IMG/VR virus record: IMGVR_UViG_2737471842_000002
Location: 1 to 4,180 of that record
Origin: a virus
Lineage: Duplodnaviria > Heunggongvirae > Uroviricota > Caudoviricetes
Length of the DNA: 4,180 bases
Direction: 5' to 3' (one strand)
The notes under the pieces are model-generated. The model worked only from the letters and a program-made list of their open reading frames with translations, had not been told where the DNA came from and did no database searches. Shown piece after piece: positions 1 to 4,180 of the stretch; the stretch's first letter is position 1, and every line of letters begins with the position of its first letter. Position numbers and translations under genes: made by a program.

Positions 1-1578
1 ACGGCTAACACATGGAGTGCGCGCCAGACTTTCAACGGCGGGATCACCGGGGCGCTGACAGGGAACGCCGACACCGCGACGAAATTAAAAACAGCCATAA
101 ACATTAATGGCGTCAGGTTCGATGGTTCGGCTGACATTAATATCAATACTCTGGTATCACGCGGTCGAGTAACTGCTCTGGCGTCGAATGCGCAGGGGAC
201 ATCCGGGATTCAGCTGTATGAGGCATACAACAATGGCTACCCTTCCCCCTATGGCAATGTGCTTCACCTTAAAGGTGCCACCGCTGCTGGCGAAGGTGAG
301 TTATTCATTGGCTGGAGTGGCACGAGCGGTGACCATGCGCCCGTACATATCCGTTCGCGGCGGGATACTGATTCTGCCAACTGGTCTGAATGGGCGCAGG
401 TCTATACGTCAAAAGATTCCGTTCCCGGCGTTAATGCCAAAGGGAATCAGGACACCTCTGGTAATGCGGCTACAGCGACCAAATTGCAGACAGCACGTAC
501 TATTAACGGTGTCTCGTTTGATGGTTCTAAAAACATTGAGCTAACAGCGGAAGATTTAAATCTACAGGAATTCATTAATAAAGCAAATAATGCCGTTCAG
601 CGTTCAGGCGATATCTTGTCCGGCGGACTTACTTTTGAAAACGACTCAATCCTTGCCTGGATTCGGAATACTGACTGGGCAAAGATTGGATTTAAAAATG
701 ATGCCGACAGCGATACTGATTCATACATGTGGTTTGAAACAGGCGACAACGGAAATGAATATTTCAAATGGAGAAGCCGCCAGAGCACCACAACAAAAGA
801 CCTGATGAATCTTAAATGGGATGCTTTGTCTGTCCTTGTTAAAGCCCTTTTCAGCAGTGAAGTAAAAATATCGACAGTCAATGCACTGAGGATATTTAAT
901 TCATCTTTTGGTGCTATTTTTCGTCGTTCTGAAGAATGCCTGCATATCATCCCTACACGAGAGAATGAGGGAGAAAATGGTGATATAGGGCCACTACGCC
1001 CCTTTACGCTTAATCTCAGAACTGGTCGGATAAGCATGGGGCATGGTCTGGATGTTACAGGAGATATATTTGCAAACCGTTTTTTAATTAACAGCAGTAC
1101 AGGCATGTGGATTCATATGCGTGACCAGAACGTTATTATGGGACGTAATGCGGTATCCACTGATGGTGCTCAGGCTTTGCTCCGTCAGGACCATGCCGAC
1201 CGCAAATTTATGATTGGCGGTCTGGGAAATAAGCAATTTGGCATCTACATGATTAATAATTCAAGGACAGCCAATGGCACCGATGGTCAGGCGTACATGG
1301 ATAATAACGGGAACTGGCTTTGCGGCTCGCAAGTTATTCCCGGCAACTATGGCAATTTTGATTCCAGATATGTGAAAGATGTTCGACTTGGTTCACAGCA
1401 ATATTATGGAGTGAACAACTGGCAAACATGGAATTTCCAGTGCCCGTCAGGTCATGTATTGTCTGGTATTAATGTTCAGGATACAGGGTCCAACTCTGCC
1501 GATAATATAGCTGGCGTTTATTACAGACCCGTTCAAAAGTATATAAATGGCACCTGGTATAATGTAGCGAGCGTTTAA
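1..1578 (+). CDS. Phage tail fibre protein, C-terminal region (5'-partial; frame open to window start), variant A receptor-binding domain
   Basis: Frame 1 is open from nt 1 with no stop until TAA at 1576-1578; the ORF-track start at 259 is a GTG inside the open frame and not a credible start. Contains two copies of a tail-fibre repeat motif (TATKL.TA..INGV.FDGS..I). First ~188 aa are near-identical to the - strand fibre encoded in the inverted repeat. Followed 1 nt later by a chaperone gene. Gly/Asn/Ser/Thr/Trp-rich distal domain is typical of fibre tips. Confidence 0.8.
64..144 (+). repeat. Tail-fibre repeat motif, copy 1 (coding-level direct repeat within the fibre)
   Basis: Encodes [27 protein letters not shown], which matches the second copy [27 protein letters not shown] at 463..540. 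Resembles the phage tail fibre repeat family found in coliphage side tail fibres (recalled, not searched). Confidence 0.6.
463..540 (+). repeat. Tail-fibre repeat motif, copy 2
   Basis: See copy 1; nucleotide similarity between copies is moderate, protein motif is conserved. Confidence 0.6.
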
Positions 1579-1579
1579 T

Positions 1580-2107
1580 ATGATGCACTTAAAGAACATA
1601 AAAGCGGGCAACGCTAAAACACTGGAACAGTATGAGTTAACAAAGAAACACGGAGTTATCTGGCTTTACTCTGAGGACGGAAAAAACTGGTATGAGGAAG
1701 TGAAAAACTTTCAGCCAGACACAATAAAGATTGTTTACGATGCAAATAATATTATTGTCGCCATCACTAAAGATGCCTCCACGCTTAACCCTGAAGGTTT
1801 TAGCGTCGTTGAGATTCCAGATATTACAGCCAACCGCCGCGCTGATGATTCAGGAAAGTGGATGTTTAAGGATGGAGCTGTAGTTAAACGGATTTATACG
1901 GCAGACGAACAGCAACAACAAGCCGAATCACAAAAGGCCGCATTGCTTTCCGAAGCTGAATCAGTCATCCAGCCGCTGGAACGCGCTGTCAGGCTGAATA
2001 TGGCAACAGACGAGGAACGCACACGACTGGAAGCATGGGAACGCTACAGTGTTCTGGTCAGCCGTGTGGATACGGCAAATCCTGAATGGCCACAAAAGCC
2101 TGAATAA
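1580..2107 (+). CDS. Tail fibre assembly protein (Tfa chaperone, Mu U-like), 175 aa
   Basis: ATG at 1580 lies 1 nt after the fibre stop, the coupled arrangement typical of fibre-chaperone pairs. The 175-aa product is a clear paralogue of the - strand 177-aa ORF (shared MMHLKNI..AGN.KT.EQY.LTK...[38 protein letters not shown], terminal ..PE). Size and position match Mu/P1 U proteins as I recall them. Confidence 0.85.
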
Positions 2108-2112
2108 AAATT

Positions 2113-2132
2113 AAGGCCCGCTATCGGGCCTT
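2113..2132. terminator. Putative bidirectional intrinsic terminator shared by the convergent chaperone genes
   Basis: AAGGCCCG-ctat-CGGGCCTT forms a perfect 8-bp GC-rich stem with a 4-nt loop in the 28-nt gap between the two stops. Read on the - strand it is followed by AATTTTTAT (good T-tract); on the + strand the downstream tract (GTCTCATT) is weaker. Confidence 0.6.
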
Positions 2133-2135
2133 GTC

Positions 2136-2669
2136 TCATTCAGGTTGTTCGGGAAATGTTACTGGCAGGCTGGAGGTGTCTGTAGATTCGACTTTCTGCG
2201 CATAGAGCATCCACTCGGTTAATTTTTGTTTATTCTCGTCGGAAATGATGCCCAGCCGTAGCTGTGAGTCCCATAGCTGGGTTTTATCCCTGACAAGTTG
2301 CAACAGGCTTTGCTTTTCATTCTCTGCCTGCTGCCTCTGTTCCTCCTCGGTATAAGTTCGCTTTATCACTACGCCATCTTTGAACATCCATTTACCCGAA
2401 ATATCAGCCCGGCGATTTGCTGTAATATCAGGAACCTCAACGACGCTTGCGCCTTCTGGATTAATTGCTGAAACATCCTTTTCAATACAAATAATAACGT
2501 CGTTGTGGTCATAGACCATTTTCAACGTATCAGGCTGAAAGTTCTTTTGTTCCTCATACCAGTTTTTTCCATCCTCTGTATAAAGCCATTTGATGTTAAA
2601 TTGTTTCGTTAGCTGGTATTGCTCTTTTGTTTTAGGGTTGCCAGCTGTAATATTTTTTAAGTGCATCAT
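2136..2669 (-). CDS. Tail fibre assembly protein paralogue (Tfa chaperone, U'-like), 177 aa
   Basis: ATG at 2669 (reverse strand) lies 2 nt after the stop of the - strand fibre ORF. Paralogous to the + strand chaperone, about 60-70% identical over the N-terminal ~115 aa by eye and divergent in the C-terminal third. Converges on the + strand chaperone gene. Confidence 0.85.
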   Translation of the reverse strand: MMHLKNITAGNPKTKEQYQLTKQFNIKWLYTEDGKNWYEEQKNFQPDTLKMVYDHNDVIICIEKDVSAINPEGASVVEVPDITANRRADISGKWMFKDGVVIKRTYTEEEQRQQAENEKQSLLQLVRDKTQLWDSQLRLGIISDENKQKLTEWMLYAQKVESTDTSSLPVTFPEQPE

Positions 2670-2671
2670 AA

Positions 2672-4180
2672 TTAAATACTCCCCGCGTTATACCACGTTC
2701 CATTAATGCAATACTGAATTGGCCTTGCTTGTGTTGTATCAATTAATTCATCACGGTTTCCGTTAACTGAACCCGTAACGACATAACCTGACCTGTCAGA
2801 CCAGCCGGGACCATTCCATGTCTGAACAGATGACAGACCGCCAAGGCGAATACCTGTAATAAACCTTGAGTTACATTCTGCCTGCGTATATGCACCAACA
2901 TCTCCCGCAGAGGGTTTGCGGGTTGTGGTGTAAAACTCTGACCAGTCAGCTTCAAAGCCATAACCATCACGCGCTGAACGATAAAAGATTCCGCCATTTC
3001 TGTAATTCACTCGGAACTGTACAGCAGGGCAGCTCCCCGTATTCATATTGAAGTGGAGGATTAATGTCGATGCGCCACCAATATTTGCGTTATAGACCCC
3101 GCTATTCCAGTTCCAGCCAACAGCTTTATCATTTCCGACAGTGCTTCCTGTTTGCCCTAAAGCAAATGCAGGCTGCTGGTTTTTCGTGTTGTAGTCTCGT
3201 CGCCAGCCAGGAGCATAAGCATCACCATGATTAATATAGGTGAATTGAGCGTTAGTGGTGCCGCCTCCGGTGGAAGTGCTTGGTGTTGTTACACGGATGG
3301 TCATGGCACCTTTATTACCCATAACCTCAATAACGCAACCTGCAAGATGAATAGTTCCACAGCCAGTATCGGTAATAATTTTATTATTGCCGTATGACCA
3401 TGAACATTTGCACATCCAGTATGGGTGATTGAATGCTCCTTGAGAATCCAGCCATTCAATCAATTGTGCCGTCGTCCAGTTTCCTGCACCTGTGCTAATA
3501 GCACCATGAAAAGCGCGACATGCACCAATATTTTTAGTGAAGGTATCTTTTCCTGGAATATCTGCGCCGTTCTGGTTTTTCTGTAATGCTCCTGAGGCTA
3601 ATTCTACGGTTTGCTCAAGATTTAAATCTTCCGCCGTTAACTCAATATTTTTAGAGCCATCAAACGAGACACCGTTAATAGTACATGCTGTCTGCAATTT
3701 GGTCGCTGTAGCCGCATTACCAGAGGTATCCTGATCCCCTTTAGCATTGACGCCGGGAACTGAATCTTTTGACGTATAGACCTGCGCCCATTCTGACCAG
3801 TTGGCAGAATCAGTATCCCGCCGCGAACGGATATGTACGGGCGCATGGGCACCGCTCGTGCCACTCCAGCCAATGAATAACTCACCTTCGCCAGCAGCGG
3901 TGGCACCTTTAAGGTGAAGCACATTGCCATAGGGGGAAGGGTAGCCATTGTTGTATGCCTCATACAGCTGAATCCCGGATGTTCCCTGTGCATTCGCCTC
4001 CAAGGCTGTTACGCGACCGCGCGATACCAGAGTATTGATATTAATGTCACCAGAACCATCGAACCTGACGCCATTAATGTTTCTGGCTGTTTTCAATTTC
4101 GTTGCGGTATCGGCGTTCCCTGTCAGCGCTCCGGTGATCCCGCCGTTGAAAGTCTGGCGTGCACTCCATGTGTTAGCCGT
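2672..4180 (-). CDS. Phage tail fibre protein, C-terminal region (5'-partial; frame open to window end), variant B receptor-binding domain
   Basis: Reverse-strand frame is open from nt 4180 down to the stop at 2674-2672; the ORF-track start at 4096 is a TTG inside the open frame. The region encoded by 3618..4180 is near-identical to the + strand fibre, then diverges completely into a different Gly/Asn/Thr/Trp-rich distal domain. The extreme C-terminus (INGTWYNAGSI) resembles the + strand fibre C-terminus ([11 protein letters not shown]). Confidence 0.8.
   Translation of the reverse strand, partial: TANTWSARQTFNGGITGALTGNADTATKLKTARNINGVRFDGSGDININTLVSRGRVTALEANAQGTSGIQLYEAYNNGYPSPYGNVLHLKGATAAGEGELFIGWSGTSGAHAPVHIRSRRDTDSANWSEWAQVYTSKDSVPGVNAKGDQDTSGNAATATKLQTACTINGVSFDGSKNIELTAEDLNLEQTVELASGALQKNQNGADIPGKDTFTKNIGACRAFHGAISTGAGNWTTAQLIEWLDSQGAFNHPYWMCKCSWSYGNNKIITDTGCGTIHLAGCVIEVMGNKGAMTIRVTTPSTSTGGGTTNAQFTYINHGDAYAPGWRRDYNTKNQQPAFALGQTGSTVGNDKAVGWNWNSGVYNANIGGASTLILHFNMNTGSCPAVQFRVNYRNGGIFYRSARDGYGFEADWSEFYTTTRKPSAGDVGAYTQAECNSRFITGIRLGGLSSVQTWNGPGWSDRSGYVVTGSVNGNRDELIDTTQARPIQYCINGTWYNAGSI
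2679..2684 (-). promoter_or_regulatory. Possible Shine-Dalgarno for the - strand chaperone gene
   Basis: Reverse-strand GGGGAG lies 9 nt upstream of the ATG at 2669, inside the last codons of the fibre gene. The + strand chaperone has no comparably clear SD (only GAGCG), consistent with translational coupling. Confidence 0.4.
3641..3718 (-). repeat. Tail-fibre repeat motif, copy 2 mirror in the right inverted-repeat arm
   Basis: Mirror of 463..540; the - strand encodes [27 protein letters not shown]. Confidence 0.6.
4037..4117 (-). repeat. Tail-fibre repeat motif, copy 1 mirror in the right inverted-repeat arm
   Basis: Mirror of 64..144; the - strand encodes [27 protein letters not shown]. 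Confidence 0.6.

Follow-up and report, generated by a model that had tools for sequence, protein, structure and literature searches.

A mosaic P1-type tail-fibre segment with non-identical repeat arms in a P1-like plasmid prophage

The DNA analysed here, a stretch of 4,180 nucleotides that we refer to as the window and that comprises the entire 4180-bp draft contig JUDK01000050.1 (GCA_000798275.1), begins and ends in inverted-repeat arms that encode the same part of a tail-fibre shaft and differ from each other at about 5% of their positions. This raises the question of whether both arms are translated, as would be the case if inversion took place at sites outside of the repeats, or whether the crossover lies at their inner ends and one arm is a silent copy. 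It further raises the question of where the divergence between the two arms came from. The window is the C segment, i.e. the invertible tail-fibre segment, of a P1-like plasmid prophage, and the observations as a whole are best explained, with a probability of roughly 0.88, by a P1-type Cin/cix switch with mosaic, expressed arms.

Two cassettes, each consisting of a fibre tip and a chaperone, lie in opposite orientation within the window, and their open reading frames (1-1578 and 1580-2107 on the plus strand, 2136-2669 and 2672-4180 on the minus strand) are collinear with the annotated segment of P1. The left inverted-repeat arm (1..563, plus strand), open in frame 1, codes for a 188-aa piece of the shaft of the tail fibre S that lies shortly beyond the junction, at cix, with the constant part Sc; the outermost 49 nt of the arm are missing. 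The open reading frame continues from this arm to a stop at 1578, and its section from 564..1578 (plus strand), the distal portion of Sv that is specific to this arm, forms the receptor-binding end of variant S of the fibre; it matches Gp34_trimer (PF21446, E = 1.5e-10) and is homologous to the G segment of Mu, SfMu, and D108 from about position 605 onward. It is followed by U (1580..2107, plus strand), the tail-fibre assembly chaperone for S (PF02413, Caudo_TAP, E = 1e-37), with P1 gpU in the equivalent position. On the minus strand, U' (2136..2669; PF02413, E = 2e-36) is the assembly chaperone for S' and shows 71% inverted similarity to U. The distal, arm-specific part of Sv' (2672..3617, minus strand), which corresponds to "Sv prime" of P1 and forms the receptor-binding end of variant S', belongs to an open reading frame ending at 2672 and gave a weak gp37_C match that is below the Pfam cut-off (E = 3e-4). 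The right inverted-repeat arm (3618..4180, minus strand) codes for these 188 aa of the shaft in S', with seven substitutions and with alleles of the P1-like lineage. Between the convergent genes U and U' there is a GC-rich hairpin (2113..2132; -24 kcal/mol, z = -6.1), a terminator-like site on the minus strand that is likely to act as a bidirectional terminator. The C segment of P1 has the same order, namely arm, Sv, and U, then U', Sv', and arm on the opposite strand, and is 92-93% identical to the window at the nucleotide level; the C segments of D6, P7, and RCS47 are homologous as well. Coding inverted-repeat arms of ~0.6 kb characterize a C segment, and 563 nt of each arm, both in frame, are found in the window.

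According to the P1 annotation the C segment extends over positions 2452-6707 of the P1 genome (L001), and is bounded by the crossover points cixR and cixL, with cin located next to the latter. In the alignment the window corresponds to positions 2501-6658, hence the outer 49 nt are absent on each side. Near-identical relatives extend the arms by these 49 nt outward to the cix crossover, which results in complete arms of ~612 nt each (about 612-630 nt in the relative L085). The complete invertible cassette would accordingly be ~4.28 kb long, with this contig cut 49 nt inside each cix. Since the outermost ~70 nt are the same in both arms, and this is where an assembler breaks at an invertible segment, the contig ends inside the repeat. 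Two relatives, L085 and L086, each of which shows 3 mismatches to the window, carry cix sites at the outer ends of the arms, and these are identical to P1 cix. Both also harbor, beside the segment and beyond the reach of the window, a cin gene encoding a 186-aa protein with Resolvase and HTH_7 domains; in L085, Cin is identical to P1 Cin at 185/186 residues and the enhancer at 68/72 positions. The window itself contains neither cix nor cin, and we infer its function as a switch from these relatives with 3 mismatches.

An exact ungapped comparison of positions 1-563 with the reverse complement of 3618-4180 gave 29 mismatches, corresponding to 94.85% identity, and the match stops beyond position 563. 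An independent repeat search delimited the arms as 1-570 and 3611-4180 with 94% identity. A first-pass annotation, made from the sequence without database searches, had put the identity of the arms at about 95% and the amino-acid differences at about seven in ~188 aa. Both estimates hold, as the fibre reading frame is open through both arms and exactly seven differences were counted (I33R, A44G, A61E, S62A, D111A, N149D, and R166C), and all five peptide pairs that it gave as examples are correct. However, its impression that most of the differences were non-synonymous was mistaken: 22 of the 29 are synonymous (76%) and 7 are non-synonymous, or 23 and 7 of 30 when the junction codon 562-564 is added. 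Calculated according to Nei and Gojobori, dN is 0.017 and dS 0.186, and the resulting dN/dS of 0.089 goes along with too few non-synonymous changes relative to neutrality (P = 3e-9). The annotation had also stated that overwhelmingly synonymous differences would take away the interest of the divergence, and with this result most of that interest is gone. The low dN/dS is due to purifying selection that acted on the expressed fibre sequence of the donor lineages. Since it reflects selection there, it does not, taken alone, prove the expression of both arms in the present host. On the same value, positive selection for arm differences was rejected.

The differences are clustered, as had been noticed in the first pass. 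Seventeen are located within arm positions 1-198 and none within 199-331, and a gap of 134 nt without any difference has a P of 0.009 in a permutation test. The conserved core of 133 nt that is identical between the two arms (199..331, mirrored at 3850-3982) is at the same time the section of the arm that varies least within the P1 family, with 4-6 variable sites per 66 nt vs. 8-15 elsewhere, so that a recent conversion tract need not be assumed for its identity. The arm also holds an internally repeated stretch, detected by the repeat search only. The Arg in two copies of it is hit by substitutions, R33I in the left arm and R166C in the right arm. No fibre-repeat domain was found inside the arm by Pfam at E <= 0.01.

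The position of the crossover can be read from relatives in which the segment is present in both orientations. When the segment is drawn in the same internal orientation, L085 has the order Sc - segment - cin, and L086 the order cin - segment - Sc. The two share an identical block of 4286 nt. In L085 this block starts 53 nt ahead of the position that corresponds to the start of the window, and in both loci the adjoining 300 nt on either side agree fully after swapping and reverse complementation. The junctions of the block lie in ...CCAATACC/TTGGTTTAAGAG and ...CCTAAACC/TTGGTTTAAGAG, which is P1 cix; its edges, also given as ...TTATCCAATACC/TTGGTTTAAGAGAA and ...AATCCTAAACC/TTGGTTTAAGAGAA, are the sequences of P1 cixR and cixL. 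The first position at which the arms differ is reached only after 73 nt of the block, so that the exchange is restricted to these terminal 73 nt, which include cix; the 26 arm differences of L085 and L086 all move with the inverted block. The complete Escherichia fergusonii plasmids p18B233LT1 and p18B269LT2 (AP028823, AP028829), which belong to a sister lineage, are identical except for the segment from cix to cix, which is exactly reverse-complemented, and here the arm differences flip along with the segment, too. Across the two orientations, gene calls yield S and S' at full length (995 aa and 972 aa, respectively). Both orientations with breakpoints at cix are therefore seen in near-identical relatives and in the E. 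fergusonii isomers; the window, L085, and L086 are draft short-read assemblies, and the inversion was observed in these relatives rather than in reads of the window's own strain. Because inversion affects everything between the two cix cores, every arm difference included, the two arms are translated alternately, within S or S'. This agrees with the first-pass proposal that inversion occurs at sites outside the repeats and that the two fibres also differ in their proximal region. As the crossover lies beyond the arms, the shafts of the two fibres truly differ at the seven residues.

The alternative put forward in the first pass was a crossover at the inner junction between arm and unique sequence, as in Mu, in which case one arm would never be translated and would decay as a silent, drifting copy. 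In Mu-type segments, gix is contained in inverted repeats of 34 bp where constant and variable sequence meet, a position that is equivalent to the inner ends of the arms. Furthermore, the inner 3 kb of the window (~605-3615) is about 89-91% identical to the G segment (Gin/gix) of Mu, D108, and SfMu, with the same S/U and S'/U' cassettes. However, this homology ends at the arm boundaries, at ~605 and ~3615, and the 0.56-kb arms have no counterpart in it. A Mu-type G segment has its sites at the boundary of shared and variable sequence and no long arms, but no gix- or cix-like core is present at 555-575 or 3605-3630 of the window, nor was the core AACCNNGGTTT found anywhere in it with one mismatch allowed, the contig ending 49 nt inside the segment. 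Both arms are intact open reading frames with a dN/dS of 0.09, and the inverted blocks of L085/L086 and of the E. fergusonii plasmids take in the whole arms, which refutes an inner crossover and leaves it with practically no probability. In the P1-type switch, the serine invertase Cin, encoded beside the segment, would recombine the two 26-bp cix sites at the outer arm ends, and each inversion would link the constant 5' part Sc of the fibre gene S either to arm-L with Sv and U or to arm-R with Sv' and U'. With the crossover outside the arms, both arms are coding and are expressed alternately.

Regarding the origin of the 5% divergence, the two arms have different nearest relatives. The best matches of the left arm (99.1-99.3%) are Escherichia coli plasmids (O111:H8 99.1145, WP8-S17-ESBL-05, and others) and the Salmonella plasmid pMFDS1011657, whereas those of the right arm (98.2%) belong to a different, P1-like plasmid group. 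When 22 distinct arms of relatives were tabulated, both alleles were found to segregate at 24 of the 29 sites, in lineage-specific blocks. In a chunk-wise comparison, positions 1-2300 of the window are ~99-100% identical to pMFDS1011657, except for a foreign patch at 1046-1254, and positions 3136-3760 and 3972-4180 match other lineages; for 3972-4180 the identity is 98.6% to P1, TK3896, and E. fergusonii vs. 93.3% to the Salmonella plasmid. The plasmid pMFDS1011657 itself has two left-type arms, which show 8 differences to each other. The sites shared with other P1-family arms, the different nearest relatives of each arm, and the mosaic blocks indicate that the arm divergence was mainly imported by recombination among elements of the P1 family and was not built up in place. 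The left arm and the adjoining Sv-U half would then be derived from one P1-family lineage, and the right arm from P1-like as well as other lineages, in patches that cover 1-209 and 419-563 of the arm. The arms together with their conserved 133-nt core may provide the homology for the exchange of fibre cassettes between co-resident P1-like elements, and purifying selection in the donor lineages would have kept the differences mostly synonymous.

Drift in place, by which arms that were once an identical duplication in this lineage would have accumulated independent point mutations without gene conversion, could be argued from five right-arm alleles that are private among the arms sampled, all of them synonymous (51, 174, 387, 438, and 525), and from the retention of 26-29 arm differences over six independent assemblies of the lineage. 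Nevertheless it is very unlikely, as the alleles at the other 24 sites segregate in P1-family arms in lineage-specific blocks, the nearest relatives differ for the left and the right arm, the sister Salmonella plasmid has two left-type arms, and the differences occur in patches that coincide with mosaic blocks reaching into Sv'. The five private alleles show that some mutation, in place or in an unsampled lineage, contributes to the divergence. To polarize the exchanges a phylogeny would be required, as import of a foreign arm and arm-to-arm conversion are both possible, and we infer their direction and mechanism. The seven substitutions probably have little functional effect.

The first-pass annotation had further concluded that the arms are not homogenized by gene conversion. 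This is correct insofar as they have not been homogenized since they came together. It does not apply to the way in which the divergence arose, which is apparently imported mosaicism for the main part and not drift in place, and it is to be weighed against the 99.3% homogeneous arms of P1 and against three relatives with a left-type outer right arm. In these, the draft contigs L089, L092, and L094 of the clade to which the window belongs (99.6% identical to the window), positions 1-198 of the right arm are of the left-arm type, and the change to the right type takes place between 198 and 332, inside the identical core. In L092, where both arms are visible, both are of the left type at 129-198. 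This pattern, which is seen in draft assemblies, could be the result of arm-to-arm conversion, of homologous exchange, or of an intermediate of stepwise import.

For a comparison of arm-to-arm identity across relatives, in which the window has 94.85%, the highest value is 100% in the IMG/VR contig L016, followed by P1 with 99.3% (4 differences in 612 positions, all near the inner end), L038 with 98.9%, the Salmonella plasmid pMFDS1011657 with 98.6%, the E. fergusonii plasmids with 98.0%, and pTK3896_3 with 97.3%. Lower values were obtained for D6 and L010 (both about 85%), L014 (83.7%), and L012/L013 (82.5%). Taken by stretch, the arms of D6 are 93% identical over 198 nt and 86% over 366 nt, and those of P7 are 87% identical over only 198 nt, with a further, displaced 129 nt. 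A comparison with the arms of P1 and P7 had been recommended in the first pass, and it places the window, with 29/563 differing positions, between the two. The C segments of P7 and D6 are Cin/cix switches of the same architecture with arms that are clearly non-identical, like those of the window, but they are far more diverged and contain indels. Thus, an arm identity of 95% is ordinary and mid-range for the family, which extends from 100% to about 82%. The invertases Gin, Hin, Cin, and Pin require only 26-bp sites, the enhancer, and Fis, and Mu works with 34-bp repeats. Since Cin needs only cix and the enhancer, nothing mechanistic forces the arms to be identical. A full-text search of the literature found no report on the arm-to-arm identity of C segments. 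The C segment or tail-fibre inversion region is described as a variable hot-spot among P1/D6-like plasmids (PMC6906374, PMC6799933).

It could be asked whether the divergence is selected for, either because the arm differences are kept for distinct shafts of S and S', or because a mismatch of 5% curbs RecA-mediated inversion and leaves switching to Cin. R33I and R166C do affect Arg in two copies of the internal repeat, and the arm chimeras of the relatives break in the identical core, so that homologous exchange between the arms may occur. However, there is no excess of replacements at a dN/dS of 0.09, members of the family function with arms from 100% (P1: 99.3%) to about 85% identical, and both alleles of the substitutions are found in either arm position across the family, all of which makes such selection extremely improbable. 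The chances are also very slim, with no observation pointing that way, that the divergence is maintained instead of being neutral mosaicism, be it that the 5% mismatch suppresses RecA-dependent inversion and the formation of chimeras and thereby leaves switching under the control of Cin, or that shaft substitutions, e.g. R33I and R166C, are matched to their own tips and chaperones. If this were true, the chimeras in L089, L092, and L094, which break in the only long identical stretch, would be footprints of the homologous exchange that the divergence limits.

Coming back to the P1-type switch with imported arm differences, the closest complete records are pTK3896_3 of E. coli, p18B233LT1 and p18B269LT2 of E. 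fergusonii, which show both segment orientations, and pMFDS1011657 of Salmonella, with 95.7-96.3% identity over the whole window. Their arms are 97.3-98.6% identical to each other, and none of these plasmids combines a left arm of the Salmonella-plasmid type with a right arm of the P1 type. P1 shares with the relatives of the window the identical cix, a Cin with 185/186 identical residues, and the crossover at the outer ends of ~0.6-kb arms, but its arms differ at only 4/612 positions. Unlike in P1, part of Sv (1046-1254) and part of Sv' (3136-3550) in the window come from other lineages. By its architecture and sequence, and by the recombination sites, the recombinase, and the inversion seen in its near-identical relatives, the segment is a mosaic allele, not previously known, of the known P1-type Cin/cix switch and not a Mu-type segment with inner sites. 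The significance of this is modest. In P1-type switches the 0.6-kb arms consist of ordinary coding sequence for which identity is not required, they are sites of fibre-cassette exchange between P1-like phage-plasmids, and the near-perfect arms of P1 represent one extreme of a range rather than the rule. In practical terms, assembly breaks in drafts of P1-like plasmids fall at cix or within the arms, and which fibre gene is annotated, S or S', depends on the captured orientation. For host-range engineering of P1 vectors it is of relevance that the differences between the two natural fibres can extend beyond the tip to the shaft.

Finally, some or all of the arm differences could stem from mixed reads of two co-resident P1-like elements or of other fibre genes. 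The window is a whole draft contig of 4180 bp that ends within the repeat, and the differences at 72, 87, and 98, near its end, are unique to it, which fits such an artefact. Yet 26 of the 29 differences recur exactly in five other independent assemblies, among which two contigs (45 kb and 26 kb) extend through the two arms into the flank on each side, and complete plasmids of sister lineages have non-identical arms as well, so that an origin of the divergence in the assembly is highly unlikely. The three sites in question form a patch (72..98, plus strand) with C, A, and T, respectively, which is found in this contig only and includes R33I. All near-identical relatives with a contig covering any of these sites (8/8) carry the right-arm alleles there, and the three sites are the sole differences between the window and L085-L088 and L091. 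The patch may be either a micro-import or a contig-end effect; the C-A-T haplotype is present in other arms of the family, e.g. in L012/L013 and L011.

Three loci that are 99.6% identical to the window, L089, L092 and L094, all of them draft contigs (3/3), carry the left-arm type in approximately the outer third of the right arm (window-equivalent positions 3983-4160), and in each of these right arms the switch between the types falls within the 133-nt core that is identical in both arms. Moreover, L092 has the left type in both arms at arm positions 129-198, which suggests a non-reciprocal homogenisation or an import intermediate. The left arm of the window itself contains a patch of three substitutions seen in this contig alone, C, A and T at positions 72, 87 and 98, respectively, the last of which leads to the exchange R33I. 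All eight near-identical relatives whose contigs reach any of these sites (8/8) have the right-arm alleles there, and the C-A-T haplotype is also present in other P1-family arms, namely those of L011 and L012/L013. The patch at 72-98 is either a 27-nt import or an assembly effect at the contig end. The window, which is a complete draft contig, ends on both sides (positions 1 and 4180) 49 nt inside the cix crossover, and the sister contigs L091-L094 are likewise separate contigs. Evidently, short-read assemblies drop the invertible segments of P1-like elements as separate contigs of ~4.2 kb. In PLSDB, the C segment of eight nearly identical plasmids from E. fergusonii is recorded in either orientation with unchanged coordinates, and the two plasmids compared, AP028823 and AP028829 (L003/L008 against L007), are exact inversion isomers.

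Each arm also contains a stretch of ~78 nt (26 aa) twice, the copies of which are 71% alike at the DNA level (window 460-537 compared with 4043-4120, the latter corresponding to arm positions 61-138). No Pfam domain was called at this repeated stretch of the arms, and its Arg is the site of both the R33I and the R166C differences. Two mirrored, out-of-frame ORFs of 118 aa at 188-544 on the plus strand and 3637-3993 on the minus strand are almost certainly not genes; they represent one arm sequence read twice.

Between the arms, positions 1046-1254 within the fibre-tip gene Sv share just 77% identity with the Salmonella plasmid pMFDS1011657, compared with ~100% for the rest of the left half. 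The same region is 99% identical to the IMG/VR locus L047 and constitutes a short mosaic insert within the fibre tip. Furthermore, a GC-rich hairpin at 2113-2132 is located between the convergent genes U and U' and is likely to be a bidirectional terminator, the surrounding region 2098-2145 having a folding energy of -24 kcal/mol (z = -6.1).
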